Below are positions 31,848-63,408 of a DNA stretch of 64,000 nucleotides, in pieces. The DNA is taken from contig JAHCRH010000001.1 in NCBI GenBank assembly GCA_020148025.1, forward strand, positions 12,652-76,651, in the 5' to 3' direction. The translations under genes and the position numbers were made by a program. Under the pieces are notes generated by a model. That model ran no database searches. It was not told the DNA's origin and was given only the letters and a program-made list of their open reading frames with translations. Within the stretch, counting starts at the first letter, position 1, and the number at the start of each line of letters is the position of its first letter. The DNA is from Patescibacteria group bacterium. Its GTDB lineage: Bacteria; Patescibacteriota; Minisyncoccia; Minisyncoccales; JAHCRE01.

Positions 31848-31960
31848 CTAAACATTTTTAATTTATGTTTAGACGTTTACGTATTTATATGAGATCGGTT
31901 AGTTAATTATATCATTCCTCTTGCAGAATAAAAAAACTTTGGTATAATGAGATAAATCTT

Positions 31961-33859: not shown

Positions 33860-33924
33860 AGAAAAGTTAATTTTAACATGCTAACATCCTAACATTTTAA
33901 CAAAAACAAACTCTCAATGTTTAA

Positions 33925-34284
33925 ATGTTAATATGTTTAAATGTTTTGATGATGGCCGATTGCCTATTTTGCAAAATTATCAAGAAAAAACTTCCCTCAG
34001 ATATTGTCTATGAGTCAGATTCGGTTATTGCTTTTAAGGATATTAATCCTAAGGCCCCGGTACATCTTTTAATTTTGCCAAAGGAACATATTCCTTCGGT
34101 GAATCATTTAAAAAAAGAAGACAGAGAATTAATGGGGGAATTAATACTTGTGGCTCAGAAAATCGCTAAAGAGAAAAAATTAAAAGGATACAAATTAATA
34201 ATTAATGTCGGTCGAGGAGGTGGTCAGCTAATTGACCATTTACATTTACATTTACTGAGTGGAAAACTATTAGAATTACCTTAA
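33925..34284 (+). CDS. HIT-family protein (HinT-like)
   Basis: histidine triad 'HLHLHLL'; start probably at internal Met 'MADCLFCKI' near 33952. Confidence 0.85.
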   Translation: MLICLNVLMMADCLFCKIIKKKLPSDIVYESDSVIAFKDINPKAPVHLLILPKEHIPSVNHLKKEDRELMGELILVAQKIAKEKKLKGYKLIINVGRGGGQLIDHLHLHLLSGKLLELP

Positions 34285-35766: not shown

Positions 35767-36969
35767 ATGGCTCGGATCATAACCGGTTTAGATATTGGAA
35801 CAAGAACTATAAAAACTTTGATCTGCCAAAAAAAATCAAGTGAATTGGATCTTGAGGTTTTGGGTCAGAGTAAAGAAATTTCCTCTGGTGTAAGAAAAGG
35901 AGTAGTGATTAATATTGGAGAGGTTGCTGAGATTATTAAATCTTCTATTGATAAAACTCAAGAAATTTCTAATAAAAAAATTAAATCAGTTTTTGTTAAT
36001 GTTGGGGGAGCTCATATTTTTTCTACCACTTCTCACGGTCTAATCTCAGTCTCGCGAGCCGATCAGAAAATATCTCAGGAAGATATTGAGAGGGTACTTC
36101 AGGCCGCTCAGACTTTTTCTCTTCCTTCAAATAAAGAAATTTTGTCAGTTTTCCCCAAGGAATTCACCCTTGATAACGAGAAAGGGATAAAAGAACCTTT
36201 AGGAATGAAAGGAGTAAGGTTGGAGGTAGGAGTTTTAGTTCTCGGAGGTTTTTCTCCTTATTTAAAAAATTTGACTCAGGCTGTTTTAGATGCCGGTGTC
36301 CAAATTGATGATTTGATTTTAACTCCCTTAGCTAGTTCGAGAGCAGTCTTGACTCCCCGAGAAAAAGAATTAGGGGTGGCTCTTTTGGATATTGGGGCAG
36401 GAACTACTGGGTTAGCTGTATTTGAAGAAGGTGATTTAATTCAGACAACCATTTTGCCAATTGGTTCAGCTCATATTACCAATGATATTGCTATTGGTCT
36501 TAGATGTGATATTGATACGGCTGAAAAAATAAAATTAGAATCAGGTGCTTGCATTTTCAAAGGGGTTGATAAAAAGAAAAAAATTGAGACCATTTCTGGA
36601 GAGATCTTGATTTTTTCTCAGAAGATGTTAAGTCGAGTTATTGAAGCTAGAGTTTCTGAAATTTTTGAAGAGATAAACAAAGAATTGAAAAAAATTTCCC
36701 GTCGAGCTTTACTTCCCGGAGGCACAGTTTTAACTGGTGGGGGAGCAAAGTTGCCAAAGATTAAAGATTTAGCTAAAAAAGAATTAAGGTTGCCTTGTCG
36801 AATTGGAGTTCCTCAGGGTTTTTCTTCTCCTTTGGAAGATCCAGAACTATCAACTGTTTGTGGTTTAGTTCTTTTGGGAGCCGATCTTGAGACTGAAAGA
36901 ACTTTTCCTGCTTTTGGGAAAGAAATTACTTCTCGATTAAAAAAGATATTTAAAATTTTTTTACCTTAA
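35767..36969 (+). CDS. ftsA: cell division protein FtsA
   Basis: 'ITGLDIGTRTIKTLI', actin-fold ATPase, 400 aa. Confidence 0.8.
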   Translation: MARIITGLDIGTRTIKTLICQKKSSELDLEVLGQSKEISSGVRKGVVINIGEVAEIIKSSIDKTQEISNKKIKSVFVNVGGAHIFSTTSHGLISVSRADQKISQEDIERVLQAAQTFSLPSNKEILSVFPKEFTLDNEKGIKEPLGMKGVRLEVGVLVLGGFSPYLKNLTQAVLDAGVQIDDLILTPLASSRAVLTPREKELGVALLDIGAGTTGLAVFEEGDLIQTTILPIGSAHITNDIAIGLRCDIDTAEKIKLESGACIFKGVDKKKKIETISGEILIFSQKMLSRVIEARVSEIFEEINKELKKISRRALLPGGTVLTGGGAKLPKIKDLAKKELRLPCRIGVPQGFSSPLEDPELSTVCGLVLLGADLETERTFPAFGKEITSRLKKIFKIFLP

Positions 36970-41045: not shown

Positions 41046-41139
41046 AAAATTAACCCATTCGACAAGCTCAGAGTTAATGCTGAGCAACGTCGAAGCATTA
41101 ACCGAAGCGCATAACAAATTATGTGTCCGGTGAAATCAA

Positions 41140-42250: not shown

Positions 42251-42333
42251 TCAGTAGGGTTTAGCCAATAGGGTTTAGCCAATAGAGTGGAAGAAATTAG
42301 ACCCTAGACCCTAGACCCTAGACTCTAGACTCT

Positions 42334-44597: not shown

Positions 44598-44810
44598 ATG
44601 ATACAACCAAGAACAATGTTAAAAGTAGCTGATGTCGCGGCACGCGATCGCTTCGCTCCGCTAACACCGCTCCTTGAAACCTTGCGGTTTCAATACTTCC
44701 ACTACGGGAAAACACCCAGTTTTCCCGACCCCTTTCTATTATCAGCTACTTTTGATAGTATTTATTACTACTTTTTAAATAAAATTAAGTTTATTCTAAA
44801 AATAAAATGA
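44598..44810 (+). other. upstream ORF made of a duplicated rplN start (12 codons) fused to a family-A repeat element; its TGA overlaps the rplN ATG
   Basis: 44598-44633 'atgatacaaccaagaacaatgttaaaagtagctgat' versus 44807-44842 'atgatacaacctaggactatgctaaaagtagctgat'; four differences, all synonymous. Confidence 0.5.
44634..44733 (-). repeat. GC-rich palindromic element, family A copy (reverse orientation)
   Basis: 'gtcgcggcacgcga...ctacgggaaaacacccagttttcccgacccc'. Confidence 0.7.
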
Positions 44811-45178
44811 TACAACCTAGGACTATGCTAAAAGTAGCTGATAATACTGGTGCTAAAATCGTTCAATGTTTTAGAGTTTTAGGTGGTACTCGTAAAAGAT
44901 ATGCCCGAATTGGTGATATTATTGTTGGCACTGTAAAAGAAGCTGAGCCGAGAAGACTGGTAAAAAAACACGATATTGTCAGGGCAGTAATAGTTCGTCA
45001 AAAAAAAGCTTATCGAAGATCTGACGGAAGTTATATTCGATTTGACGATAATGCCATCGTAATTTTAGAAGGGAAAACAAAAGACCCAAAAGGGGGGAGA
45101 ATCACTGGACCAGCGCCTAGAGAATTAAAAGAGAAAGGATTTGAAAAAATAGCGGGATTAGCTGAAGAATTAGTATAA
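44807..45178 (+). CDS. rplN: ribosomal protein L14
   Basis: '[17 protein letters not shown]'. Confidence 0.95.
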
Positions 45179-48025: not shown

Positions 48026-48526
48026 ATGTTTAGAAAAATCATTAAAGAAAAACCAAAAGAAGAGTTCGAATCCAAACTTCTTGATTTAGCTCGTGTTACC
48101 CGAGTTACCGCAGGCGGTAAACATTTTCGATTTCGGGCAGTAATGGTGATTGGAAATAAGAATGGAGAAGTTGGGGTAGGAGTAGCTAAAGGTTCAGATG
48201 TCGCCCAGGCAGTAGAAAGGGCAACGAGATTAGCTAAGAAAAATTTAATTGAAGTGCCAATCATCGATGATACAATTGAGCACGAAGTTTTCGCAAAATT
48301 TGGAGCGGCTAAGGTTTTACTTAAACCCCAAAGAAAAGGAAGAGGGCTGGTGGCGGGCGGTACCGTCAGAGTTATTTGCACTTTAGCTGGAATAAAAAAT
48401 ATTTCTTCAAAAGTTTTAGGAGCTACAAGTAACAAAATCAACAATGCTAGAGCAACAATTAAAGCCCTGAAGGAACTTAAAGCAACAAGTAACAGGCAAC
48501 AAGCAACAAGGAGTGTTAAAAAATAA
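48026..48526 (+). CDS. rpsE: ribosomal protein S5
   Basis: 'VTRVTAGGKHFRFRAVMVIGN'; C-terminus contains a '(caacaag)' heptamer repeat. Confidence 0.95.
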   Translation: MFRKIIKEKPKEEFESKLLDLARVTRVTAGGKHFRFRAVMVIGNKNGEVGVGVAKGSDVAQAVERATRLAKKNLIEVPIIDDTIEHEVFAKFGAAKVLLKPQRKGRGLVAGGTVRVICTLAGIKNISSKVLGATSNKINNARATIKALKELKATSNRQQATRSVKK

Positions 48527-48567
48527 ACCCCTTCTTGTCTCTTGTCTCTTGTCTCTTGTCTCTTGTA

Positions 48568-49011
48568 ATGCAATTACATCAATCACGTTCAAAACATAAA
48601 TTAAAAAAGAGAAAGCGTGTAGGCCGGGGAGGGAAACGTGGTACTTATTCTGGTCGGGGAATAAAAGGTCAAAGGGCTCGAGCTGGTCGAAAGCTGAAAC
48701 CTGTAATTCGAGAGTTAATAAAAAGATACGCAAAGTTAAGGGGATATAGATTCAAACCTCTGGAACAAAAGCTAGATGTGATTAATATTGAGACCCTTGG
48801 GAAAAAATTTAAAGCAGGCTCGGTGATTAATCCTCAAACCTTGCTTAAACTTAGATTAATCCGTAGAATAAAAGGGAAGATGCCAAAAGTAAAAATTTTA
48901 GGGAGGGGAGAAATAAAAAAGGCTTTAGTTATTGAAGGGTGTGAGATTTCAAAAAGTGCTAAAGAGAAAATCAAAAAAGCAGGCGGCAAAATTACAGGGT
49001 CTAGGGACTAG
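48568..49011 (+). CDS. rplO: ribosomal protein L15 (directly after S5; no L30 gene)
   Basis: 'KLKKRKRVGRGGKRGTYSGRG'; the track ORF from 48535 runs through the (ctcttgt)x4 repeat. Confidence 0.9.
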   Translation: MQLHQSRSKHKLKKRKRVGRGGKRGTYSGRGIKGQRARAGRKLKPVIRELIKRYAKLRGYRFKPLEQKLDVINIETLGKKFKAGSVINPQTLLKLRLIRRIKGKMPKVKILGRGEIKKALVIEGCEISKSAKEKIKKAGGKITGSRD

Positions 49012-49082
49012 GGTCTAGCCATTAGGTTCTAGTAAAAAAACGATAAATCCTAAACCCTATACCCTGAACCCTAAGCTAAAAT

Positions 49083-51143: not shown

Positions 51144-51959
51144 TTGAGATTGACAGAGACCCGGTCTCTGTTGGATGAAATGATTTCTATCAAATCAAAA
51201 AAGGAAATTGAGATAATGAGAGAGGGTGGTAAAATTCTGGCAAAAATTATGAAAGAGTTAGAAAAGATGGTCAGACCAGGAATTACCACCAAAAAATTGG
51301 ATAGGCTCGCTGAGAGCCTTATTTTAAAATATGGGAAATGCTCATTTGAAGGTTATAATGGTTTCCCGACTTGTCTTTGTACCTCAATAAATGAAGAAAT
51401 TGTTCACGGCGTCCCATCCAATAGAATTTTGAAAGAAGGAGATATTATTTCTCTTGACCTTGGTTTTTTTTACAAAGGATTTCATTCTGACATGGCAGTC
51501 ACTTTAGCAGTTGGAAAAGTGAAGCCTGAACTTTTGAAATTAATTAAGGTGACAAAAAAAGCTTTAAAGAGAGCCTTAAGAAAAGTTCGGCCGGGAAATA
51601 CTTTTGGTGATATTGGAAACAGTATTCAGAGATATGTTGAGGGTCAGGGATTTAATGTAATTAGGGAGCTTTGTGGTCATGGAATTGGCAAAGATCTACA
51701 CGAAGACCCTCAAGTATTGAATTATGGCAAAAGAAGGACCGGGCCTGAGCTTGTCGAGGGTATGACATTCTGCATTGAGCCTATGGTATCAACGGGAGAT
51801 TTCAGAATAAAGAAAACAACCCCGAAGCAGAGCAAGCTCGCTACGGGGCAAGAAAATGGCTATAGTTATCAAACTGTTGATGGTTCAATATCGGCCCATT
51901 TTGAACATACAGTGGCAGTAACAAAAAATGGAGTAGAGATCTTGACAATTTCAAAATAA
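51144..51959 (+). CDS. map: methionine aminopeptidase type I
   Basis: 'MISIKSKKEIEIMREGG', metal ligands; start probably at internal Met near 51180. Confidence 0.9.
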   Translation: MRLTETRSLLDEMISIKSKKEIEIMREGGKILAKIMKELEKMVRPGITTKKLDRLAESLILKYGKCSFEGYNGFPTCLCTSINEEIVHGVPSNRILKEGDIISLDLGFFYKGFHSDMAVTLAVGKVKPELLKLIKVTKKALKRALRKVRPGNTFGDIGNSIQRYVEGQGFNVIRELCGHGIGKDLHEDPQVLNYGKRRTGPELVEGMTFCIEPMVSTGDFRIKKTTPKQSKLATGQENGYSYQTVDGSISAHFEHTVAVTKNGVEILTISK

Positions 51960-52034
51960 CAACTATAAAGGGGCGTTTCAGAAAACTGATTCGCCCATTT
52001 TTTGTTTTATAATTTTTTATGCTAAAATAATTTA

Positions 52035-52820
52035 ATGCCAGACTACAACCCACCCACCACGTCCTCCCATTCTTCGCTTCGCTCAGAACGAGCCCCTGTT
52101 TATTTATCTGTTATTATCCCTGCCTATAATGAGGAAGAGAGATTACCAGAGACTTTGCGAGAGATTGATAAATATTTAAAGACAAAAGATTATGAATCTG
52201 AAATTATTGTTGTTTCTGATGGTTCAACCGATAGAACGGTTGAGGTTGTTAAAAATTTGATGCCAGAAATTAAAAACCTGAGATTAATTGAATTTGAAAA
52301 AAAGAGGGGAAAGGGATTTGGAGTTCGTCAGGGAATGTTAAAAGCCTCAGGAAAATATCGGGTTTTTACTGATGCTGATAATTCAACCTCAATCGATCAG
52401 ATTGAGAAAATGTGGCCGGAATTTGAGTCAGGTTTCGATATCGTCATTGGTTCAAGAGATATAAAAGGAGCTGTAATTGCCGTTCCCCAGACCTGGTTTA
52501 GAAGAAGATTAGGGGACATTTTTAATTTAATTTCGCAGGTAATTTCTGGTCTCTTGGGGATCTGGGATACTCAATGTGGATTTAAGGGGTTTACTAAAAA
52601 AGCGGCAGAGGATATTTTTTCAAAGGCGACGATTGATCGTTTCGCCTTTGATGTTGAGGTTTTAATTCTGGCAAAAAAACTTGGATATAAATTCAAGGAA
52701 ATCCCGGTAGTCTGGATAAATGACCCAGGAAGCAAAGTGAAATTCAGATCAATGGTAGAGATGTTAATTGATGTATTCAAAATAAGATTAAATTTTATTA
52801 AAAATATATATAAAATCTGA
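52035..52820 (+). CDS. family 2 glycosyltransferase (dolichyl-phosphate sugar synthase-like)
   Basis: 'LSVIIPAYNEE', 'DADN'; GC-rich N-terminal extension. Confidence 0.8.
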   Translation: MPDYNPPTTSSHSSLRSERAPVYLSVIIPAYNEEERLPETLREIDKYLKTKDYESEIIVVSDGSTDRTVEVVKNLMPEIKNLRLIEFEKKRGKGFGVRQGMLKASGKYRVFTDADNSTSIDQIEKMWPEFESGFDIVIGSRDIKGAVIAVPQTWFRRRLGDIFNLISQVISGLLGIWDTQCGFKGFTKKAAEDIFSKATIDRFAFDVEVLILAKKLGYKFKEIPVVWINDPGSKVKFRSMVEMLIDVFKIRLNFIKNIYKI

Positions 52821-52821
52821 T

Positions 52822-53865
52822 ATGAAACCTAAAAAAAAGACCAAAGGTAAAATAAGATTCCCATCTGAGCTTCGATTTGATTTGGTTTCGAGAGATTGGG
52901 TTATCATTGCAACTGGCAGGGCTAGAAGGCCGGAAACCTTCAAAAGAGAAAAGAGATTCAAAAAAGTACCTCCTCGTAAGACTTGTCCCTTCTGCCAAAT
53001 TAAAAATTTAGAAAACCCCCTACTTATTTTTGCTCAAGGAAAAAAAATCCCCGGTCAAAAAATTCCTAAGAATTGGACAACGATTATTATTCCAAATAAA
53101 TTTCCTGCTCTTTTTCCTCACCCTAAATTAAACAAAAAGATTGAAGGTGGTCTTTATCAGACAATGAATGCAGTGGGTTTTCATGAAATAGTGGTTACTG
53201 AAAATCATAAAAGGTCAATAGGTCAGTTTAAGGTAGAGGAGGTAAAAGAAGTTATTGATGCCTATTACAAGAGATATTCAGAATTGATGAAAAAACCATT
53301 TGTAAATTATGTTTCTATATTTCACAACCATGGGGCTGAAGCAGGAGCTTCAATCTTTCATCCCCATTCTCAAATCATCACCACCCCTCTTATTGATGTC
53401 GATTTAAGCAGGGCTCTTTTTAATTCAAAGAAATATTTCAAGACTCATAAAAAATGCGTTTATTGTCAAATGGGTAAATGGGAAAGGAAAACCCAAAAGA
53501 GGATTGTTTTTGAAAATGAAGATTTTTTAGTTTTATGTCCTTTTGCCTCAAAGGCCGCCTTCCAAATTATAATCTCTCCAAAAAAACACTCAGCCTATTT
53601 TGAAAGAATAACTGAAAGAGAAAAATGGACTTTGGCCGAAGCCTTCAAGATGGCCTTGGGTAAACTTTATAAGGCCCTAAATGATCCGGCTTATAACTTT
53701 TATTTACACACTGCCCCCTGTGATGGAAAGAAGTATGATCATTATCACTGGCACTGGACGATTTTACCAAAAACATCAATTTGGGCAGGATTTGAAATTG
53801 GAACAAGAATGGAGATTTCCACCATTGAGCCAGAGAAAGCAGCCGAATATTTGAGAAAACAATAA
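52822..53865 (+). CDS. galT: galactose-1-phosphate uridylyltransferase
   Basis: 'FHPHSQI' HIT-like motif; zinc Cys/His 'CPFCQ'. Confidence 0.8.
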   Translation: MKPKKKTKGKIRFPSELRFDLVSRDWVIIATGRARRPETFKREKRFKKVPPRKTCPFCQIKNLENPLLIFAQGKKIPGQKIPKNWTTIIIPNKFPALFPHPKLNKKIEGGLYQTMNAVGFHEIVVTENHKRSIGQFKVEEVKEVIDAYYKRYSELMKKPFVNYVSIFHNHGAEAGASIFHPHSQIITTPLIDVDLSRALFNSKKYFKTHKKCVYCQMGKWERKTQKRIVFENEDFLVLCPFASKAAFQIIISPKKHSAYFERITEREKWTLAEAFKMALGKLYKALNDPAYNFYLHTAPCDGKKYDHYHWHWTILPKTSIWAGFEIGTRMEISTIEPEKAAEYLRKQ

Positions 53866-53869
53866 ATTT

Positions 53870-54682
53870 TTGATAATGGGCCAAAAAAGTTTCACTCTAA
53901 TTGAGCTTATGGTAGTTATTGCCATTGTTGGATTAATTGCCAGTATTGTTTTGGTTAGTTTAAGAGGAGCAAGGCAAAGAGCAAGAATTGCTGCCGGTAT
54001 GCAGTTTTCTGATTCCCTAAGAGCTGGCTTATCTGATGCTATAACTGGTTGGTGGAGCCTTGATGAAGGAACAGGAAATACAGCTGGAGATACTTGGGGA
54101 GGAAATAATGGAACAATTTATGGCGACAATTACTGGACAACAGAAGGGATAAGAGAAGGAGCTCTGAGTTGTAGTGGAAATGATTATGTCAGGATTAATA
54201 ATGTTCAAGTTGATACTGCAAGTGGAGCCCAAAATACGGTTGAGTTTTGGATGAATTGGACTGGTACTAACAGTCAGATGCCAATGGGTTGGGACATTTA
54301 TGACCTGTGGTTAATAGACGGTTGTTTTGGTTTTAATACATCAGAAAATAATGCTTTAGGAGTTTCCTGGGATGGCTTAGTTAATAACTGGATTCATGTT
54401 GCTGCAATTTTTTACAACGGAGCGCCATCAAGCACAAATAATGAATTATATATCAATGGAAAAAAGCAAAGTATTTATTGGTGTCGTGGTAGCGGAGGTT
54501 CCTCTAGCAGCGTGACTACAACAGTTCAAATAAGCGGGTGGCCCACCAATGCCGCTTATCGTTTCAGCGGTCTTATTGATGAATTCAAGATTTATAACCG
54601 AGGCCTTACTGCTTTAGAAATTCAAAAGAGATATGCCGAAGGGTTGGAGAAATATAAGGACTTTGTCTTAAAAAAGCTCTGA
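53870..54682 (+). CDS. type IV pilin-like protein with C-terminal LamG_3 (concanavalin-A-like lectin) domain
   Basis: prepilin N-terminus 'GQKSFTLIELMVVIAIVGLIASIV'; LamG_3 signature 'GLIDEFKIYNRGLTALEI'. Confidence 0.7.
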   Translation: MIMGQKSFTLIELMVVIAIVGLIASIVLVSLRGARQRARIAAGMQFSDSLRAGLSDAITGWWSLDEGTGNTAGDTWGGNNGTIYGDNYWTTEGIREGALSCSGNDYVRINNVQVDTASGAQNTVEFWMNWTGTNSQMPMGWDIYDLWLIDGCFGFNTSENNALGVSWDGLVNNWIHVAAIFYNGAPSSTNNELYINGKKQSIYWCRGSGGSSSSVTTTVQISGWPTNAAYRFSGLIDEFKIYNRGLTALEIQKRYAEGLEKYKDFVLKKL

Positions 54683-54687
54683 TTGAA

Positions 54688-55236
54688 GTGTTTAAACGAA
54701 TCTTTAAATATCTTCTGATGATGCAACAAAAATCATTCACTCTCATCGAACTTTTAGTAGTCATTGCCATTATCGGGCTTTTAGCTTCGATTGTGTTTAT
54801 TAGTCTGGCAGGGGTAAGGGCAAGAGCAAGGGATGCCAGAATTCTTCTTGATTTAAGACAAATTAAAACTATAGCCGCAATGATTAACAGTGATTATAAT
54901 TCCTATGCTAATTTGTGTGCTGTCGATTTGACTCTTAACGAAAATGCCCCCGCTCCTTATGGAAAACAGCTAGAGTTAATTGAAGACGATCTTACCAAAC
55001 AGCAAGGGAGGTCACCTCTTATTATGCTTTGCGTTGCTGCTACCTCTAGGTATTGTGTATCCGCAGTTTCATCTACTTTTGATTTCATTTCAGAAGATTA
55101 TCACTCTTGGTTTTGTACGGACTCTGATGGGAGGAGTGAGTTTAGATTTTACTGCTGGGACGAGTCCACTGACACCCCTACTGATAGATGCCTAGAACAC
55201 AAAGCATTTCCTCCACCCCCACCCCCACCTCCATAA
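54688..55236 (+). CDS. type IV pilin-like protein, Cys-rich, C-terminal poly-Pro tail
   Basis: 'QQKSFTLIELLVVIAIIGLLASIV'; ends 'FPPPPPPPP' from (ccaccc)n. Confidence 0.7.
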   Translation: MFKRIFKYLLMMQQKSFTLIELLVVIAIIGLLASIVFISLAGVRARARDARILLDLRQIKTIAAMINSDYNSYANLCAVDLTLNENAPAPYGKQLELIEDDLTKQQGRSPLIMLCVAATSRYCVSAVSSTFDFISEDYHSWFCTDSDGRSEFRFYCWDESTDTPTDRCLEHKAFPPPPPPPP

Positions 55237-55300
55237 AGCAGTGTCAGTTGGTATTACACAAGGAAAATAGAAAATAAGGTTATTCTCATTTTTTTAATTT

Positions 55301-56056
55301 ATGAAACCATTAATTGTAGCAAATTGGAAATGCAACCCTCAAACTCTAAAAGGAGCTAAGCTCCTTTTTAATTCGATAAAAAGAGGAATGAAAAAAATTA
55401 GGAATGTCGAGGTGGTAATTTGCCCCCCCTTTGTATATTTATTGACAAGCGACAAGCGACAAGCGACAAAGATAAAATTAGGTGGACAGAACTGTTTTTG
55501 GAAGGGAAAAGGACCCTTTACTGGAGAAGTTTCCCCAAAGCAGCTTTTAAATTTTGGCTGCAAATATGTAATTTTAGGGCATTCCGAAAGGAGAATCTAT
55601 TTCGATGAGACCGATGAAATGATAAATAAAAAAATAAAGGCTGCGATATCAGTAAAATTAAATCCAATTTTTTGTATTGGGGAAACTAAAGAGGAACGAG
55701 AAAAAGGCCAGACTCAAAGTATTTTAAAGTCTCAGATCGAAAAAGGTCTTAAGAAAGTTTCAAAAAAGGAGATCGAAAAGATTACAATTGCCTACGAGCC
55801 CGCCTGGGCGATTGGAACTGGAAAACCTTGTGACACTGAAGAAGCCCAAAAAATGAGTTTGCTTATTAGAAAGATGATGGCTAGAAAATATTCTCTTTCG
55901 ATTGCTAAGAAACTAAGAATGATTTACGGAGGCAGTGTCAATAGTAAAAATGCCAGAGACTATATAAAAGAAGCCGATTTCCAGGGACTTTTAATTGGCG
56001 GAGCCTCTTTAGATCCCAAAGAGTTTATTAAAATTGTGAAAACAATTTCTGCGTAG
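55301..56056 (+). CDS. tpiA: triosephosphate isomerase
   Basis: 'ANWKCN', 'GHSERR', 'AYEPAWAIGTG'; contains (gacaagc)x3 tandem repeat. Confidence 0.95.
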   Translation: MKPLIVANWKCNPQTLKGAKLLFNSIKRGMKKIRNVEVVICPPFVYLLTSDKRQATKIKLGGQNCFWKGKGPFTGEVSPKQLLNFGCKYVILGHSERRIYFDETDEMINKKIKAAISVKLNPIFCIGETKEEREKGQTQSILKSQIEKGLKKVSKKEIEKITIAYEPAWAIGTGKPCDTEEAQKMSLLIRKMMARKYSLSIAKKLRMIYGGSVNSKNARDYIKEADFQGLLIGGASLDPKEFIKIVKTISA

Positions 56057-56143
56057 CTGTTAAATCTCAGAAGTGTCAATAGAGTTAAACTCTAATTTAA
56101 AAGCTTGACTTTTTTGTGCTTTTTAGTATTTTAATAGAATAGT

Positions 56144-56824
56144 ATGGATAAATTTTTAAAAGGTTATTTTTATAATCCCACTCGAGGAAATTTGAAAATC
56201 AAGGAGGTGATGGAGGAAATGTTAAGCTACATGAAGGAGAAACCAGAAAAGTTTTACGATATTATTGTTGGTTGTGATTCTTCCTCTGGAGAGAAATTCA
56301 ATTTCCCAGTGGCAGTGGTTATTTTAAGAGTAGGGGAAGGAGGGAGATTTTTTCTTAAAAAAATAAATTATCCTCCATCTCTAAGAAAAAAATTTTCCAA
56401 TTGGAAAATGCGAGTTTTGGAAGAAGTTTTATTATCCTGTGAATTAGCTCTATTCTTAAGAGAGAACTTTGAGAAAAAGATAAAAAGTGAATCAAATGCT
56501 TTTGATAAAAAGCCAGAAGGGGGTCGGGAAAACTGGGTGTTTTCCCGTGGTGGAAACAGGGAGGCTGAAAGCCGACCGCCAGAACCGCAAGGTTCTGGGG
56601 AGCTGAGCGAAGCGAGCCCAAAGGGCAAGCGCCAGCCGAAGGCTGGAGAAGCGAAGCAACCTTTTAATTATCAACTTCGTTATATTCATGCTGATATTGG
56701 AGAGCACGGTCAGACAAGAGATATGATAAAAGAAGTTACTGGTTTAATCCGGGGAAATGGCTTTGAGCCAAAGATTAAACCAGAGTCCTATGTAGCTTCA
56801 ACGGTGGCTGATAGATACAGCTAA
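56144..56824 (+). CDS. YkuK/DUF458-family RNase H-like protein carrying an in-frame family-A element insertion of about 150 nt
   Basis: 'IIVGCDSS' ; insertion encodes 'PEGGRENWVFSRGGNREAESRPPEPQGSGELSEASPKGKRQPKAGEAKQP'. Confidence 0.6.
   Translation: MDKFLKGYFYNPTRGNLKIKEVMEEMLSYMKEKPEKFYDIIVGCDSSSGEKFNFPVAVVILRVGEGGRFFLKKINYPPSLRKKFSNWKMRVLEEVLLSCELALFLRENFEKKIKSESNAFDKKPEGGRENWVFSRGGNREAESRPPEPQGSGELSEASPKGKRQPKAGEAKQPFNYQLRYIHADIGEHGQTRDMIKEVTGLIRGNGFEPKIKPESYVASTVADRYS
56517..56660 (+). repeat. GC-rich palindromic element, family A copy, inside the ykuK-like ORF
   Basis: 'gggtcgggaaaactgggtgttttcccgtggtggaaacagggagg...ccagaaccgcaaggttctgg...gcgaagcg'. Confidence 0.7.
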
Positions 56825-56925
56825 TTAGTATGTAGTATGTAGATAGTAGATGGTTGAGCCGCCTTTTTGGCGGCCCTTTAACTTATTTGAAAAAATCTTC
56901 TTATTTAGTAAGATTAGAATAGAAA

Positions 56926-58707
56926 ATGATTTCTAAAGACTTGCGAAAAAATTTTTTAGATTTTTTTGAAAAAAGAGGACACAAAATTGTGGCCTCCGGT
57001 TCGCTTTTACCGTCTGACCCTACTGTTTTGTTTACTACCGCTGGCATGCAGCAGTTTACTTTATATTTGGCAGGGGGAAGAGATCCTATCGAGAGGTTTG
57101 GAACAAGACACTTGGCTTCTTGTCAGAAATGTTTTAGGACCGATGACATAGATAAAGTAGGTGACGATATCCATCACACCTTTTTTGAAATGTTGGGAAA
57201 TTGGTCAATTGGTCAAGACCAAGAAAAAGGTTATTTTAAAAAAAGAATGATTAAATACGCCTTAGAATTTTTGGTTGGTGTTTTAAATATAGATAAAAAT
57301 AGAATTTGGGTAACTATTTTTAAAGGAGAAAAAAACATACCAAAAGATGAAAGGTCAAAAAAAATTTGGCAGGAAAACGGAGTTTTGAGAGAAAGAATAG
57401 GAGAATTTGGTATAGAGGAAAATTTCTGGGGACCGGTTGGGAAAACAGGTCCCTGCGGTCCTACTTCAGAAGTTTTTTATGATAGGGGAAAAGAATTTGG
57501 TTGCAAAAATCCTGACTGTGGTCCAAATTGCCATCATTGTCAACGTTTTGTAGAAATTTGGAATTTGGTTTTTATGGAATATATCAAAGATGAAGATGGA
57601 AATTGTCGACTTTTGTCTCAAAAGAACATAGATACTGGAATTGGATTTGAAAGATTGGTCGCCATTTTACAAAAAAAACCCTCAGCTTATGAAACTGATC
57701 TTTTCTTGCCAATCATTCAAGAATTGGGAAAAATTTCCTTTAAAAAATACGAAGAAGAAAAAAGAAACTTCAGAATTTTAGCCGATCATATTAGAGGAAC
57801 AGTTTTTTTGATTGCAGAAGGAATTTTCCCTTCAAATGTGGAGAGGGGATATGTTTTGCGAAGAATTTTAAGAAGAGCAATCAGATTCGGAAGGTTATTA
57901 AATCTACCTAAAAACTTTCTAATTCCCTTGGCTCAAAAAGTTATTGAAATTTACGAAGACACTTACCCTGAAGTGAAATCTAAAGAGACAGATATTTTAA
58001 CAATTTTACAAAATGAAGAAGAGAAATTTGAAAAAACCTTAGAAAAAGGTTTAAAACAATTTGAAAAGATTTCAGCTAAAGGAGATATCTCAGGAATTGA
58101 TGCCTTTCATCTCTTTGATACCTATGGGTTTCCTTTAGAATTGACTCAAGAATTAGCAAAAGAAAGAAAATTGGAAATTGATATTGAAGGATTTAAAGAA
58201 GCCTTTGAAGAACATCGGGAAATTTCTCGGGCAGGAGCAGAGAAAAAATTTGGAGGTGTAGGAAAGGAGGCAAGTTTCGAAGCTACTAAACTTCATACCG
58301 CAACTCATTTACTCCACACTGCCTTAAAAAAAATTTTAGGTCCCCATATTAGACAAATGGGTTCAGATATTACCTCCAAAAGACTTCGGTTTGATTTTTC
58401 CCATCCCCAAAAAATGACAGCTGAAGAGATTAAAAAAATTGAAGACTTGGTTAATCAAAAGATAAAAGAAGATTTAGTAGTTAAAAAAGAGGAGATGCGA
58501 TATGAAGAGGCGATAAAATCAGGCGCTTTAGCTTTTTTTAAGGAAAAGTACCCTGAAATTGTTAAAGTTTATTCAATTGGTAACTTTTCAAAAGAAATTT
58601 GTGCTGGCCCTCATATCAATAGAACTTCAGAACTTGGTAAATTTAAAATCGTTAAAGAAGAGTCATCTGGTGCGGGAATCAGAAGAATAAAAGCTATTTT
58701 AGAATAA
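56926..58707 (+). CDS. alaS: alanine--tRNA ligase, short form (catalytic plus editing domains, no C-Ala domain)
   Basis: 'FTTAGMQQF', editing 'HTATHLLH'. Confidence 0.85.
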   Translation: MISKDLRKNFLDFFEKRGHKIVASGSLLPSDPTVLFTTAGMQQFTLYLAGGRDPIERFGTRHLASCQKCFRTDDIDKVGDDIHHTFFEMLGNWSIGQDQEKGYFKKRMIKYALEFLVGVLNIDKNRIWVTIFKGEKNIPKDERSKKIWQENGVLRERIGEFGIEENFWGPVGKTGPCGPTSEVFYDRGKEFGCKNPDCGPNCHHCQRFVEIWNLVFMEYIKDEDGNCRLLSQKNIDTGIGFERLVAILQKKPSAYETDLFLPIIQELGKISFKKYEEEKRNFRILADHIRGTVFLIAEGIFPSNVERGYVLRRILRRAIRFGRLLNLPKNFLIPLAQKVIEIYEDTYPEVKSKETDILTILQNEEEKFEKTLEKGLKQFEKISAKGDISGIDAFHLFDTYGFPLELTQELAKERKLEIDIEGFKEAFEEHREISRAGAEKKFGGVGKEASFEATKLHTATHLLHTALKKILGPHIRQMGSDITSKRLRFDFSHPQKMTAEEIKKIEDLVNQKIKEDLVVKKEEMRYEEAIKSGALAFFKEKYPEIVKVYSIGNFSKEICAGPHINRTSELGKFKIVKEESSGAGIRRIKAILE

Positions 58708-58736
58708 AATTTCTATTTTGTGATATAATTAAAAGG

Positions 58737-59933
58737 ATGAAAGTCAAATTTCCTTTTTCGAAAGAAATCAAGCCGGAATATTTTTTAGCCTTAGATGTCG
58801 GGACCGAAGCAGTAAAGGCTTTAATTTTTTCTTCCCCTGCTCGCTCTGGCAAAAGCAGAAAAGAGGAAGGTGAAAAAATCATTGTCCGTGGGGCTTCTAC
58901 TCAATATTTCGAGCAATTTGGAGTTTTCAATACTAAGGGTCTTGGAGAAGAAATTCTCAAAAAAGCAATTTCAAAAGTAATTGAAGAAGTTCAGAAGAAG
59001 GCTCAGATAAAGACAGATGCTCTTTTTCTTGGTTTACCAGCTAATATTTTGAGAGGAAGAGTGGTGTCTCAAAATTTTAGAAGGAAAAATCAAAAAGAAA
59101 TTATTAGCGAGATCGAAAAGAGTCAAATTTATAAAGAGGTTTCAAATTCGGTTAAAGAAAAACTCTCTCAAGAATTCGCTCGAGAAGTAGGCCTCTTACC
59201 CAGAGATTTCTATTTTTCTAATCTAAAAATTCTGGAAATAAAGATTGATGGTTATGAAGTTTCTTCAATTCAGAGATTGAGCGGTAAAAATCTTGATTTT
59301 AAAGTTTTAGCTGTTTTTTTGTCAAGATATTATTTGGAGAAGGTCAAGAAGATTTGCCAAGATTTAGATTTAAAAATTTCTAAAATAATCCATCAGGCTG
59401 AAAATCTGCCCCTTTTTTTTCAAGACAAGAAGATAAATGCTATTTTCCTTGATATTGGCGGAGAATTAACAAAAATTTTTTTGGTGGAAAAGGGAAAACT
59501 AAAGAAAACCTCTGAATTTAAAAAGGGAGGGGTCGATTTTACTCGGAAGCTTTCCCAGATTTTAGGATTAAGTTTCCAAGAGGCAAGAGTTTTAAAACAC
59601 AATTATTCCCAGTTACTTTTGTCAGGAAAAACAAGAAAAAAGGTTAAAGAGATTTTTTCTGCTAATCTTCAAGATTGGTTTAAAAATTTAGAAGAAACTT
59701 TAAAGAAATTCTCCAAGAAATTATTTCCCTCTAATATTTTTCTTTTTGGTGGGGGAAGTCTCTTGCCAGAAATTCCAGAAATTTTAGAAAAAGGTGATTG
59801 GGCTGACTTTCCTTTTGTTTTCAAACCAAAGGTGAGACTTATCTATCCTAACGAGTTAAAGAATATTGAAGATAAAACTCAGGGTCTTAACAGTCCTCAA
59901 GAAATTTCCCTTCTTTTAATTTCTTATGAATAG
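58737..59933 (+). CDS. actin-fold ATPase, PilM-like / FtsA-like
   Basis: 'YFLALDVGTEAVKALIF', 'IFLFGGGSLLPEI'. Confidence 0.5.
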   Translation: MKVKFPFSKEIKPEYFLALDVGTEAVKALIFSSPARSGKSRKEEGEKIIVRGASTQYFEQFGVFNTKGLGEEILKKAISKVIEEVQKKAQIKTDALFLGLPANILRGRVVSQNFRRKNQKEIISEIEKSQIYKEVSNSVKEKLSQEFAREVGLLPRDFYFSNLKILEIKIDGYEVSSIQRLSGKNLDFKVLAVFLSRYYLEKVKKICQDLDLKISKIIHQAENLPLFFQDKKINAIFLDIGGELTKIFLVEKGKLKKTSEFKKGGVDFTRKLSQILGLSFQEARVLKHNYSQLLLSGKTRKKVKEIFSANLQDWFKNLEETLKKFSKKLFPSNIFLFGGGSLLPEIPEILEKGDWADFPFVFKPKVRLIYPNELKNIEDKTQGLNSPQEISLLLISYE

Positions 59934-61125
59934 AAAAATTTTTTTTGATATTTTGCCACCCAAAAAATTTGTCCAAAAGAAGATTAAAGAACAGAGAGTA
60001 TCTCGTTTTGGAGTATTTAAAAAAGGTTTGATTTTCGCTTGTTTATCTTTGATTTTACTGGGAATTATCGGCTATTTTGCTTTAGCTAAAGTAGAAATTG
60101 AGATTTGGCCGGAAACTGAGATTTTAAATTTTAATAAAGAGATTACCGCTAGCACTAAGACTTTTCAAGTAAATTTCTTGGAAGGGAGCATACCTGCAAG
60201 AATTTTTGAAATTGAAGAAAGTGCTTCCCAGGAATTTCCCTCTTCTGGCAAAATTGAAAAGAAAGCTGAGGGTACGATTCGAGTTTATAATAATTATCAT
60301 CTCTTAGTAGCTCTAAGGTCAGGAACTCGATTTCAGCCTCCTTTTGAGAAGGTGCTCTATTTTTGTTCACCTCAAAAAATAGTTATTCCGGCTAAAAGTT
60401 ATCTTGATATTAAGATAATTGCCTGTCGTCCTGGTGAAGGTGAAAAATATAATATTGGACCTTCTAAATTTTCTGTTCCCGGACTCAGTGGTACCGATTT
60501 GTTCTTTTATATTCATGGAGAGTCTTTTGAACCAATGACAGGAGGTGGAACAATCTCTCAAGTCACCGAAGATGATTTAGAAAGGGCAAAAAACATTTTA
60601 ACTGAAACGGCATTTACTCGAATAAATGAATCTTTAAAGAGCAAAATTCCAACTGACTTCATCCCGTTGGAGGAAGCAATAAAAGGAGAGATCTTAGAAA
60701 CTTTTCCAGAGGTTGAGCTAGGCGCTGAAGTTCAATCCTTTGAAGTTAAAGTAAAAGTAAAATCTAAAACCCTGGTTTTTAAAAAATCTGATCTCGAGAA
60801 TTTTGCTAAAGAATTTATTTCAGCCCAAATTCCAAAAGATAAGAAACTTCAGACCGAAAGTCTAAAAATTGACTTCCAAGCAGAATCAACCGACCTTGAA
60901 TCAGAAAAAACTGTTTTAAATTTAAAGTTCTCAGCCAAAATTTACTTGGATATTGACTCCTCTTTTCTTAGAGAGAACTTAAAAGGGAAGTCTTTGGAGG
61001 AGACTAAAATTATTTTAGAAAATCAAGCAGACATTATTAAAGCTCAAATAAGTGCTTGGCCATTTTGGGTAAGAAAAATTCCTCAGGATATTGAAAAAAT
61101 CGAATTGAAAATAAATTTGGATTAA
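59926..61125 (+). CDS. hypothetical membrane-anchored protein (possible pilus assembly partner)
   Basis: N-terminal TM 'LIFACLSLILLGIIGYFALA'. Confidence 0.45.
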   Translation: MNRKIFFDILPPKKFVQKKIKEQRVSRFGVFKKGLIFACLSLILLGIIGYFALAKVEIEIWPETEILNFNKEITASTKTFQVNFLEGSIPARIFEIEESASQEFPSSGKIEKKAEGTIRVYNNYHLLVALRSGTRFQPPFEKVLYFCSPQKIVIPAKSYLDIKIIACRPGEGEKYNIGPSKFSVPGLSGTDLFFYIHGESFEPMTGGGTISQVTEDDLERAKNILTETAFTRINESLKSKIPTDFIPLEEAIKGEILETFPEVELGAEVQSFEVKVKVKSKTLVFKKSDLENFAKEFISAQIPKDKKLQTESLKIDFQAESTDLESEKTVLNLKFSAKIYLDIDSSFLRENLKGKSLEETKIILENQADIIKAQISAWPFWVRKIPQDIEKIELKINLD

Positions 61126-61218
61126 AGCGAGCAAGACGCGCTCCGCAATGGCAGAAGAGATAATTCTTGTTTGATGGGATAAATAAATATTTTTTAGAAC
61201 TTTAATCCAAATTTCAGA

Positions 61219-61450
61219 AAGGGGTCGGGAAAACTAGGTGTTTTCCCGTATAGGAAGACAGGGAGGAGCGAAGCGACGACCGCCAGAAACCGAGAGGTGT
61301 CTGGGGAGCGGAGCGAAGGTCGCCAAGGGCGACCGCTCGAGCGAAGCGCGAGGGAGGAGAGCGACAATATTGATGCTTCGACAGAGGCTCAGCATTAACC
61401 CTGAGGACATTCGGCTGAGCTCAGTCGAAGCCCTTGTCGAATGGGTTGAC
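61219..61450 (+). repeat. composite GC-rich element: family A copy (61219-61374) followed by a family B copy (61372-61450)
   Basis: 'ggggtcgggaaaactaggtgttttcccgtataggaagacagggagg...' then 'gctcagcattaaccctgagg...gtcgaatgggttgac'. Confidence 0.65.
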
Positions 61451-61487
61451 TAAATTATAAATTTTTGCTATCTTAAACAATTACAAG

Positions 61488-61709
61488 ATGAATCCCCAGA
61501 AAAAAATTTTGCGAGAAAAAGGTAAAGTAATAGAGGCTTTACCTAGTACCCATTTTCGTGTCGTCTTAGATGATGGGAAAGAAATAATTGCCCATCTGGC
61601 CGGTAAATTGAGGATTTACCGAATTAAAGTTTTACCGGGAGATCGAGTAACGGTGGAGATTAGTCCTTATGATAAAAAAAGGGGGAGAATTGTTTACAGA
61701 GGAAAATAA
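61488..61709 (+). CDS. infA: translation initiation factor IF-1
   Basis: S1-like 'KGKVIEALPSTHFRVVLDDGKEIIAHLAGKLR'. Confidence 0.95.
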   Translation: MNPQKKILREKGKVIEALPSTHFRVVLDDGKEIIAHLAGKLRIYRIKVLPGDRVTVEISPYDKKRGRIVYRGK

Positions 61710-61712
61710 AGC

Positions 61713-61826
61713 ATGAAGGTTAGATCATCAGTTAAAAAAATTTGTAAATACTGTAAAATAGTCCGAAGAAAAGGGCGAATTTATGTTATTTGTAAAAACC
61801 CTAAACATAAGCAAAGACAAGGATAA
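61713..61826 (+). CDS. rpmJ: ribosomal protein L36
   Basis: '[37 protein letters not shown]', 37 aa. Confidence 0.9.
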
Positions 61827-61831
61827 AAAAT

Positions 61832-62221
61832 ATGCCACGTATTGCCGGAGTTAATATCCCGGAACAAAAACAAATAGAGATTGCTCTAACCTATATTTAT
61901 GGAATAGGTCTTTCTTTGAGTAAGAGGATTTTAGCTGAAGTTGGAATTGAAGGTCGGCGCCGGGCTAAAGATTTGACGCCCGAAGAGATTTCTCGACTTA
62001 AAGGAAATATCGAAAAAAAATATAAAATTGAGGGAGGACTTAAAAGAGAGATAATGATGAATGTTAAAAGATTAAAGGATATAGGAACCTTTCGAGGGAT
62101 TCGTCATATTAAGGGATTACCAGTAAGGGGTCAAAGAACCCGGACTAATACCCGGACGGTCAGAGGAAATGTAAGAAAAACGGTAGGTTCGGGAAGAAAA
62201 CCACCGCCCGCCCCCAAGTAA
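61832..62221 (+). CDS. rpsM: ribosomal protein S13
   Basis: '[10 protein letters not shown]'. Confidence 0.95.
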
Positions 62222-62324
62222 AAATCATTTTAACATACTAACATACTAACATCCTAACATCTTAACATATCAAAATACTTTTTTTTGTTTAAATGTTAAA
62301 ATGTTTAAATGTTAAGATGAGATT

Positions 62325-62777
62325 ATGGGTAAAAAAAGAATTATCAAAAAAACTGAAGAAGAGCTTCTAAAAGAAAGAGCAAGAGTCGAGGCGGCTTTAA
62401 AAAAAGAAATTAAAGTTCAGGCTCCTCAAAAAATCAAGGAGGGAAAGGTTTATATTTTTTCTTCTTATAATAATACAATAATGACTTTAACTGGTCCTCA
62501 AGGAAATACTCTTACCTGGGCCAGCGCTGGTAATGTTGGATTTAAGGGAACAAAGAAAGGTACTCCTTTTGCGGCCTCTAAAGTGGCTGAGGTTTTAGTT
62601 CAGCGAGCCAAAAAATTAGGAATAGATAAGGTCGAAATTTTAGTAAAGGGTATAGGTTCTGGTCGAGAATCAGCCATAAGGTCTTTGGCTAATCGGGGTT
62701 TAGATATTATTTCAATTCAGGATGTTACCCCCATTCCTCATAATGGATGTCGACCGCCAAAAGTAAGAAGAGTATAA
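62325..62777 (+). CDS. rpsK: ribosomal protein S11
   Basis: S11 core, C-terminal 'HNGCRPPK'. Confidence 0.95.
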
Positions 62778-62778
62778 T

Positions 62779-63408
62779 ATGCAAAATAAAAAATGCAGAA
62801 TCTGTCGAAGATTGGGTGCAAAACTTTTTTTAAAAGGGGAAAAATGTTTGTCTCCAAAATGTCCAATGGTAAAAAGGCCTTATCCGCCGGGACAGAAAAG
62901 AAAAAGAAGATTAAGGACTCTTTCTGAATATGGGAAGGAATTGAGAGAAAAACAAAAATTAAAAAATTGGTATAATTTGGAGGAGCGTCAATTTAAGAGA
63001 TATGTAGAGCAAGCTTTGGAATCTCGAGGAAAAGCGGAAGATAATGTAACATTTCTGATTAAGAAATTAGAAAGTCGTTTAGATAATGTAATTTTTCGAT
63101 TGGGATTCGCTTCCTCTCGGGCTCAAGCCCGCCAATTAGTTAATCACGGCCATTTTTCAATTGATGGAAAAGCAGTTGATATCCCCAGCTATCAACTAAA
63201 GAAAGGAAATAAAATTACCCTTCACCCAACTTCTCGAGAAAAAAATATTTTCCAAAATCTTCAAACCAAATTAAAAAAATATCAACCTCCTTCTTGGCTT
63301 TCCCTGGACATCAAAACCTTGACAGGGGAAGTTATCGCTTCCCCTTCCTTAGAAGAGGTTGCTCCCCCAGCTGAAATTCCAATCATTTTTGAATTTTATT
63401 CACGATAA
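62779..63408 (+). CDS. rpsD: ribosomal protein S4
   Basis: zinc knuckle 'CRICRRLG...CLSPKC'; S4 domain. Confidence 0.95.
   Translation: MQNKKCRICRRLGAKLFLKGEKCLSPKCPMVKRPYPPGQKRKRRLRTLSEYGKELREKQKLKNWYNLEERQFKRYVEQALESRGKAEDNVTFLIKKLESRLDNVIFRLGFASSRAQARQLVNHGHFSIDGKAVDIPSYQLKKGNKITLHPTSREKNIFQNLQTKLKKYQPPSWLSLDIKTLTGEVIASPSLEEVAPPAEIPIIFEFYSR

Follow-up and report, generated by a model that had tools for sequence, protein, structure and literature searches.

A conserved gene block separates the spc and alpha parts of the ribosomal protein cluster in Nealsonbacteria-type Patescibacteria

The stretch of DNA analyzed here (the window) comprises 64,000 nucleotides from the genome of a Patescibacteria group bacterium (contig JAHCRH010000001.1, positions 12,652 to 76,651 of the forward strand), and in it the spc and alpha parts of the ribosomal protein gene cluster do not adjoin. 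Open reading frame (ORF) listing and profile searches place map, the last gene of the S10-spc run, at 51180-51959 and infA, the first gene of the alpha part, at 61488-61709, leaving a gap of 9,528 nt that holds nine genes, all on the plus strand (Table 1), with spacers that range from an 8-nt overlap up to 101 nt. An earlier note, made from the sequence alone, had described the genes at 52035-61487 as an interruption of the ribosomal superoperon; its coordinates and gene content, and the separation of map from infA by a co-oriented block of about 9.5 kb, agree with what we find, and its reading of the block as an insertion does not. We suggest, and hold to be highly likely, that the block reflects an ancient gene order which a large Patescibacteria clade has inherited vertically, that it is arranged in co-oriented transcription units of its own, and that it includes a pair formed by an ATPase and a membrane protein. 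The clade in question consists of the Paceibacteria-type genomes named Nealsonbacteria, Staskawiczbacteria, Minisyncoccales and Parcubacteria.

The evidence for an inherited gene order comes from a comparison of related loci. An alignment of map homologs was used to gather the 80 best-matching map-centered loci, with 10-kb flanks, from the GTDB species representatives; 18 proteins of the window were compared with these loci by tblastn, and the ORFs of the map-to-infA interval were catalogued. The complete interval is contained in 20 loci of the candidate phyla radiation (CPR), which carry the names Nealsonbacteria, Staskawiczbacteria, Minisyncoccales, Parcubacteria, Paceibacterota or generic labels. 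In all 20, tpiA, alaS and the gene for a membrane protein lie between map and infA in the same order and on the plus strand, the membrane protein gene is always immediately upstream of infA, and the interval is 4.3-9.0 kb long. Identities to the window's proteins are 53-66% for map, 43-68% for alaS, 44-57% for tpiA and 31-45% for the membrane protein. The remaining genes of the block vary in their presence, with galT and ykuK found in 15 loci each, the family-2 glycosyltransferase gene (GT2) in 12 and the FtsA-like ATPase gene in four, where it always lies between alaS and the membrane protein gene. Further recurrent occupants of the interval are a small membrane protein of 152 aa (eight loci), mnmA (five), a DedA protein (four) and toxin-antitoxin pairs. 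An infA gene directly after map was seen in no CPR locus of the scan; the scan also gave 24 non-CPR loci (Ignavibacteria, Firmicutes, Acidobacteriota and Bacteroidota), and there infA follows map directly, at a distance of about 30-400 nt. Since the relatives show the window's arrangement as the state of the clade, it is a lineage feature and not an insertion, which is the very outcome that the earlier note had named as speaking against its own proposal.

Further supporting this relationship, three more contigs, found by way of FtsA-like homologs down to 41% identity, agree with the window's gene order and read map-GT2-galT-(pilin)-tpiA-ykuK-(mnmA)-alaS-FtsA-like-membrane protein-infA-(rpmJ)-rpsM-rpsK-rpsD-rpoA-rplQ-rplM-rpsI. 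One of them is a closed Nealsonbacteria chromosome of 639,534 bp (CP179888.1), and Candidatus Nealsonbacteria are also the nearest named relatives in protein searches. The block order is found at 100% identity on a European Nucleotide Archive (ENA) scaffold as well (scaffold_2200), which may stem from the same sample. We picture the spc/alpha junction of the clade as a fixed core of tpiA, a short alaS and a membrane protein with a likeness to phage baseplate J proteins, around which there would be slots, filled or emptied per lineage, for GT2, galT, lectin-bearing and plain pilins, the small membrane protein, ykuK, mnmA, the FtsA/PilM-like ATPase and toxin-antitoxin pairs.

The flanks of the block are those of the Firmicutes or Bacillus-type cluster, in which secY-adk-map is followed by infA-rpmJ-rpsM-rpsK-rpsD-rpoA-rplQ. 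By Pfam, the left flank of the window runs tuf, rpsJ to rplO (without rpmD), secY, adk and map; gene order and strand on both sides (rpsJ to rplO-secY-adk-map and infA-rpmJ-rpsM-rpsK-rpsD) match the Bacillus-type arrangement, and all genes from tuf through rpsD lie on the same strand. The differences are the nine genes (9.5 kb) that stand between map and infA in the window, the three-gene core that occupies this junction across the clade, and the absence of rpmD from the window. The split junction with its fixed core is a clade-specific variant of the standard S10-spc-alpha cluster; it can be seen in any Nealsonbacteria genome with an annotation and calls for no new mechanism. In a literature search, neither the gene order nor the FtsA-like paralog nor the membrane protein family was found described; the AGNOSTOS paper (PMC9132574), considered as a possible link to the subject, proved on checking to concern rpsF-rpsR in Pseudomonadales.

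As to how the block is transcribed, a generic scan for promoters and terminators was replaced by comparative motif counts, because its own counts did not rise above those of shuffled sequences and it missed the hairpin after map, which escaped it on account of an internal bulge and the loop. The clearest signal of the comparative counts stands before infA, where the pattern TTGACN-17-TANNNT occurs 25-200 nt upstream of the gene in 23 of 24 loci, the window included; the background on the plus strand of 876 kb of CPR loci is 0.079 per kb. The same pattern precedes ykuK in 9 of 28 loci and every other gene of the cluster in none or one. In the relatives, the -35 hexamer of the infA promoter often overlaps the last codons of the membrane protein gene (…ATT GAC TAA). 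On the map side, an extended -10 motif, TGNTANAAT (TGnTAnAAT), occurs within 125 nt after map on the plus strand of 18 of 57 relatives and on the minus strand of one of 57; 10 of 17 occurrences are placed 6-12 nt before the ATG, often 6-8 nt, whichever gene comes next (GT2 or tpiA), a spacing that suggests leaderless or near-leaderless mRNAs. Within the block, the window has TTGACT-16-TATTTT upstream of ykuK at 56105-56132, an extended -10-like motif precedes ykuK in 21 of 28 loci, a promoter-like site lies upstream of alaS at 56887-56914, and the simple scan called a weak terminator-like hairpin 3' of ykuK. The post-map hairpin with the extended -10 motif, the sites before ykuK and alaS and the sigma-70-type infA promoter together make several units most likely, and we conclude from these motifs that the block probably forms transcription units of its own and does not depend on obligate read-through from the ribosomal operons. 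The predicted layout would be GT2-galT-pilin-pilin-tpiA, then ykuK, then alaS-FtsA-like-membrane protein, then infA onward, with the units standing head to tail at the spc/alpha boundary, co-oriented on the strand of the ribosomal genes. In the metatranscriptome table for genome PMX_810_sub of a published Paceibacteria study (PMC10936435), map and infA bear the distant numbers 00094 and 00369; the junction cannot be followed there, and the table yields nothing usable on co-expression. A gene beside infA in that table, labeled hypothetical, shows similar expression.

The ATPase of the block had been called PilM-like in the earlier note. The actin-like fold of the FtsA/PilM family stands, and the closer assignment to PilM does not, as the protein is no nearer to PilM than to FtsA and falls below the curated hidden Markov model (HMM) cut-offs of both: it scores 58 bits against TIGR01174 (FtsA; cut-off 175.85), 21.1 bits against TIGR01175 (PilM; cut-off 133) and 16.1 bits against PF11104 (cut-off 27). 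Its AlphaFold2 model (predicted local distance difference test, pLDDT, 87.9; predicted template modeling score, pTM, 0.86) matches FtsA structures in Foldseek at 1.5e-22 (TM-scores 0.66-0.70) and then PilM structures at 4e-19 (TM-scores 0.58-0.67); a sequence profile compared with PDB sequences likewise gives FtsA at 3e-15 and PilM at 1e-10. Pfam finds no SHS2 (1C) domain (PF02491) in its sequence, and there is no C-terminal amphipathic membrane helix, the protein ending …SPQEISLLLISYE within the conserved fold. On sequence and model, then, the ATPase is a paralog of the FtsA/PilM family assignable to neither protein. It is 24% identical to the canonical FtsA encoded at 35767-36969, which scores 111 bits against PF14450 and 90 bits against SHS2_FTSA (PF02491) and ends …SRLKKIFKIFLP, with the amphipathic …KKIFKIFLP. 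The canonical ftsA immediately precedes tuf and the S10 operon, and no ftsZ adjoins it in the window.

The membrane protein, whose gene adjoins infA in all 20 complete relatives, is modeled (AlphaFold2 pLDDT 85.7) with a disordered cytoplasmic tail, a transmembrane helix at residues 28-52 and a beta-rich ectodomain. Its N-terminus carries a nearly invariant K-K-[IVF]-[FYI]-D-I-x-P-P peptide, whether or not an FtsA-like gene is adjacent. In Foldseek searches of the PDB and BFVD, the ectodomain matches phage baseplate wedge/J proteins at 5e-7 to 1e-4, with low global TM-scores of about 0.2; the PDB matches, at 5e-7 to 9e-4, come from the baseplates of phages phi812, A-1(L), Mu, Pa193, XM1 and phiCD508, and a barrel of 103 residues matches GlxA at a root-mean-square deviation of 1.9 Å. 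Among 35 homologs, 11 match PF04865 (best E-value 0.002) and 13 match PF21110, in both cases weakly; a Pfam scan gave no match to PF04865 in the window's own protein. The likeness to the baseplate J family (T4 gp6, Mu gp47, P2 gpJ; PF04865) and to the GlxA beta-barrel domain (PF21110) lies in these Foldseek matches and in the weak Pfam matches of a third of the homologs. Unlike those proteins, the product of 59926-61125 has an N-terminal transmembrane anchor, is not encoded in a phage or tailocin gene cluster, and keeps its position beside infA in 20 of 20 relatives. An identity as PilN or PilO was considered and rejected on the fold, neither being among the significant Foldseek matches. The family is very large: at 50% identity it counts 10,567 representatives, of which 4,384 fall below 1e-30, and its members are named hypothetical or uncharacterized wherever the source names them.

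The genes for the ATPase and the membrane protein overlap by 8 nt, and in one protein of 757 aa (P0468) an FtsA-like domain is fused to a baseplate-J-like membrane protein, the joint reading …LLLSSYG / QKVIDILPP…. By analogy with known systems, the two proteins probably act as a pair. The cytoplasmic D-I-x-P-P peptide would dock on an FtsA-type ATPase in the way that PilN docks on PilM and FtsN on FtsA, and binding of an FtsN peptide by FtsA is documented (PMC7613929). The comparison extends to the fold of the block ATPase, with TM-scores of 0.58-0.70 to FtsA and PilM structures that include the complexes 2ych, 5eou and 7q6i, and to the design of its partner, the product of the next gene, which has a conserved N-terminal peptide, one transmembrane helix and an ectodomain beside an ATPase that lacks a membrane-targeting helix of its own. 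The PilN motif is INLLP. The block differs from these systems in that its ATPase falls below both HMM cut-offs and its pairing is a prediction only, that its motif is [IVF][FYI]-D-I-x-P-P, and that its ectodomain appears baseplate-J-like and neither PilN-like nor a SPOR domain. Going further, one may tentatively imagine, though we would not count on it, that the membrane protein is a Patescibacteria-specific envelope component whose peptide is bound by an FtsA-type ATPase: the neighboring paralog in genomes that have one, and otherwise the canonical FtsA.

The two type IV pilin genes reported in the earlier note are genuine by curated thresholds (PF07963 at 28.0 and 32.9 bits against a cut-off of 21.2; TIGR02532), and both products read QKS-FTLIELxVVIAI, with a hydrophobic helix and Glu5. 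The residue at -1 of the cleavage site is Ser in both (53876-53900 and 54718-54745), where Gly is usual; the pilin of a related locus (L068, 11478-11520) reads NSS/FTLIEL. The combination of the N-terminal methylation motif with PF13385 is among the commonest modular-pilin architectures, for which carbohydrate binding is predicted (PMC8179133). The first pilin of the block (53876-54682) has the domain pair of modular lectin pilins such as PilC of Streptococcus sanguinis (IPR012902 with PF13385) and differs from PilC in its Ser at -1 and in the setting of its gene, which has housekeeping genes around it and is outside any pil locus. In locus L084, as in the window, the space between galT and tpiA holds a pilin with both domains, LamG included; tblastn matches to the first pilin follow galT in L004, L057 and L073, a LamG pilin follows tpiA in L030, and other pilins are found in L068. 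Because LamG pilins are found again in or close to this slot (L004, L057, L073, L084), the slot is old but patchily retained. The pilin frequency is a lower bound, since tblastn at 1e-4 probably misses divergent pilins and a signal-peptide regular expression added only a few. No pilB, pilC, pilD or pilT was found among the nine genes of the block or the 28 other window ORFs scanned. The pilins would be structural subunits, one of them lectin-bearing, encoded beside sugar-nucleotide and lipid-sugar enzymes, with the pilus machine encoded elsewhere.

Two other readings would make the block foreign to its place. As a recent mobile or horizontally acquired island of 9.5 kb, inserted at a formerly contiguous map-infA junction, it would account for the repeats at its right edge (61215-61445) and inside ykuK and for the accessory content that differs among relatives; yet the core is present in every complete relative, though their map is only 53-66% identical to the window's, the block proteins diverge over a range comparable to that of map, and the patchiness is confined to the accessory genes. 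The composition of the block is native, with an equal GC content of 0.354 inside the block and in the window outside it, a tetranucleotide distance of 0.18-0.21 that lies inside the window's range, and a GC content at third codon positions of 0.24-0.34 in block genes versus 0.23-0.32 in the others. Pfam and NCBIfam profiles and an Rfam scan show no integrase, transposase or tRNA among the features of the block, the only tRNA of the window being at 24659, 27 kb off; no direct repeat pair brackets the block, and the repeats do not mark island ends but are small elements also scattered over other parts of the window. We regard an island as very improbable. That an assembly or binning misjoin put unrelated genes between the halves of the ribosomal cluster is a thought raised by the origin of the window, which comes from a metagenome-assembled genome (MAG), and by the GC-rich repeats near the right junction, but the arrangement is identical on scaffold_2200, and the same order recurs in CP179888.1, a closed chromosome, as well as in more than 20 MAGs that different studies assembled independently. 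The chance of a misjoin, which the earlier note had named as a possible undoing of its observation, is in our judgment negligible.

The remaining readings accept the block and differ on its expression and purpose. It could be part of one long read-through superoperon, in which it would lack working promoters and terminators and would be driven, along with infA to rpoA, by the S10/spc promoters. In Bacillus subtilis, transcription is said to run on in this way from one to another of the S10, spc and alpha units; in the window every gene from tuf to rpsD lies on one strand, no strict TTGACN-17 promoter occurs in the intergenic DNA between tuf and ykuK, and predicted terminators are not above chance. 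We consider this unlikely in view of the promoter motif kept before infA, the strand-specificity of the extended -10 motif after map, and the hairpin and T-run that follow map in the window; as internal promoters are compatible with partial read-through, it overlaps with the view of separate units. The earlier note had gone on to propose that pilus genes may be co-transcribed with ribosomal proteins, and one may spell this out as a type IV pilus module of pilins, PilM-like ATPase and PilN-like membrane protein, tied to the ribosomal superoperon so that the supply of an attachment organelle follows growth rate. In its favor are two bona fide pilins, the co-orientation and short spacers of the genes, the presence of PilM among the structural neighbors of the ATPase (4e-19), and the PilN design of the membrane protein, with its short conserved N-terminal cytoplasmic peptide and one transmembrane helix. 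In Paceibacteria cultures and metatranscriptomes, moreover, genes for pilins, which may or may not be those of the block, rank with the most strongly expressed of all that encode secreted proteins (PMC10936435). However, tpiA, ykuK and alaS separate the pilins from the ATPase-membrane protein pair, and the parts vary independently, pilins being present in few loci, the FtsA-like gene in 4 of 20 and the membrane protein in all. The ATPase scores higher as FtsA than as PilM (21 bits against a PilM cut-off of 133), the ectodomain of its partner resembles baseplate J proteins and not the ferredoxin-like fold of PilN/PilO, pilB, pilC, pilD and pilT are missing from the annotated ORFs of the window, and terminator-like and promoter-like sites bound the units. 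We find a pilus module improbable, and the idea of pili wired into ribosomal operons is not supported.

Several points weigh against the interpretation that we prefer, that of an inherited block with its own units and an ATPase-membrane protein pair. The taxon sampling consists of the 80 best map matches of one scan and does not establish the depth of the arrangement within the CPR. Some loci depart from the pattern: after map, alaS and dnaE are inverted in L033 and L045, no core genes are recognizable in L041 and L043, L025 has other genes after the membrane protein gene, and L057 and L068 read galT-tpiA-pgk-recJ with no infA within 10 kb. Besides the counts of the simple scan, which do not exceed shuffles, the promoter and terminator calls are motif-based only, read-through from spc into the block may occur, and the extended -10 motif after map is found in only about a third of the relatives. 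As for the pair, the single fusion P0468 may be a frameshift artefact, since the two genes overlap, and in most genomes no FtsA-like gene adjoins that of the membrane protein.

Some practical consequences follow from the conserved junction. As 4-9 kb normally lie between the spc and alpha parts in Paceibacteria, a gap at this place should be taken neither for a misassembly nor for an island. In these organisms, which do not grow by themselves, the fixed core and the clade-wide infA promoter can serve to mark synteny and to anchor a promoter consensus. Among the leads, the most useful is the very large family of membrane proteins with a likeness to baseplate J, whose genes stand in an 'essential-gene' neighborhood, sometimes with a second FtsA/PilM-like ATPase: cell division and host attachment of the CPR are poorly known, and the ATPase-membrane protein pair is a concrete candidate. 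If an FtsA-type ATPase does hold the peptide of the membrane protein, the two may represent an unrecognized divisome or surface-appendage anchoring module of ultra-small bacteria, one that would be kept beside ribosomal genes because it is essential and highly expressed.

Table 1. Coordinates of the genes, candidate signals and repeat elements at the spc/alpha junction of the window.
Feature	Coordinates	Strand	Evidence
map, methionine aminopeptidase, last gene of the S10-spc run (left flank)	51180..51959	+	PF00557, 185 bits; identical 259-aa gene call on L001
Terminator-like hairpin (GGGCG..TCAG-AAAA-CTGA..CGCCC) followed by TTTTTTGTTTT, just 3' of the map stop	51971..52008	+	RNAfold -16.8 kcal/mol; function putative
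Extended -10 promoter-like TGCTAAAAT, 6 nt before the GT2 ATG	52020..52028	+	comparative motif count
GT2, family-2 glycosyltransferase, polyprenyl-phosphate sugar transferase-like	52035..52820	+	PF00535, 107 bits; NCBIfam matches sub-threshold only
galT-like hexose-1-phosphate uridylyltransferase	52822..53865	+	PF01087, PF02744; TIGR00209 122.6 bits (cut-off 102.1)
Modular type IV pilin 1, class III signal peptide (MGQKS/FTLIEL) and concanavalin-A/LamG lectin module (Laminin_G_3)	53876..54682	+	PF07963 28 bits; PF13385 48.8 bits; TIGR02532 29 bits (cut-off 16.3)
Small type IV pilin 2 (QKS/FTLIEL)	54688..55236	+	PF07963 32.9 bits; TIGR02532 31.1 bits
tpiA, triosephosphate isomerase (core gene)	55301..56056	+	PF00121, 296 bits
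ykuK-type RNaseH-like protein, with in-frame repeat inside	56144..56824	+	PF04308, 124.6 bits over two stretches
In-frame repeat insertion in ykuK, 159 nt (53 codons)	56495..56653	+	absent from 13 aligned orthologs; RNA fold z-score -3.4
alaS, short-form alanine-tRNA ligase, 593 aa (core gene)	56926..58707	+	NF002436 738.7 bits (cut-off 529), full length
Divergent FtsA/PilM-family actin-fold ATPase, without C-terminal membrane helix	58737..59933	+	PF14450, 46 bits
Bitopic membrane protein, 399 aa (core gene)	59926..61125	+	no Pfam or NCBIfam match
GC-rich multi-hairpin repeats in the spacer between membrane protein gene and infA	61215..61445	+	RNA fold z-score -3.7
Promoter-like TTGACT-17 nt-(TGc)TATCTT before infA	61446..61474	+	comparative motif count
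infA, rpmJ (61713-61826), rpsM, rpsK, rpsD, start of the alpha-operon part (right flank)	61488..63408	+	Pfam; rpmJ by translation

The right edge of the block carries repeat elements, as the earlier note had remarked, and copies of them recur elsewhere in the window. The spacer between the membrane protein gene and infA is 362 nt long, versus about 36-102 nt in relatives, because the GC-rich multi-hairpin elements are inserted there. At the gathering threshold, Rfam gives one tRNA only for the window, and it returns nothing for 61100-61500 at E≤1; hence no ribosomal leader or known RNA explains the length of the spacer. The segment 61215-61257 recurs at 56514-56555, within the insertion in ykuK, and in reverse at 44696-44737, and 61387-61447 has short matches at 41052-41085. 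A 27-mer is common to the ykuK insertion and to the copies at 61223 and 44704, and the exact 27-mer of the repeat is present on 19 unrelated metagenome contigs. In all, the window has copies at 56495-56653, 61215-61350, 44659-44737 (reverse) and 231-296 (reverse), and others were collected as loci L085-L103. The 5' module of the repeat is CAGAAAGGGGTCGGGAAAACTGGGTGTTTTCCCGTGGTGGAAA, after which comes a second hairpin with compensatory changes at four pairs (covariation 0.123 versus 0.073 in shuffles; 0/500).

Copies of the repeat are often flanked by direct duplications of neighboring DNA, of 14, 17, 24, 34, 45 and 51 nt (L085, L087, L090, L095 and others). One reversed copy in the window sits between the two halves of a duplicated start of rplN (44598-44842), where the first 36 nt of the gene occur at both 44598-44633 and 44807-44842, with all four differences synonymous, and a 70-codon ORF upstream of rplN ends in ATGA on the true rplN start. 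Rickettsia palindromic elements are small repeats inserted in frame into protein-coding genes. The elements described here resemble them in being small GC-rich hairpin repeats that stand in frame in the variable loop of ykuK and also between genes; they differ in belonging to an unrelated sequence family and in that many of their copies are flanked by direct duplications of 14-51 nt.

Some minor features of the window and its relatives may also be recorded. In a Staskawiczbacteria relative (L036, 12065-13710), alaS appears as two ORFs of 65 and 476 aa, which may reflect a frameshift or an assembly error. The gene for ribosomal protein L30, rpmD, is absent between rpsE and rplO in the window, where these two genes are separated by an 8-nt gap at 48526-48535; absence of L30 is usual for the CPR. 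Several intergenic spacers, including rpsM-rpsK and rplO-secY, contain short-period repeats in direct and inverted orientation, made of 8-nt TAACATnn units and of TAGGGTnTAGGGT-type units (31820-31870, 33874-33952, 62223-62328; 31383-31591, 42295-42320, 48987-49074).

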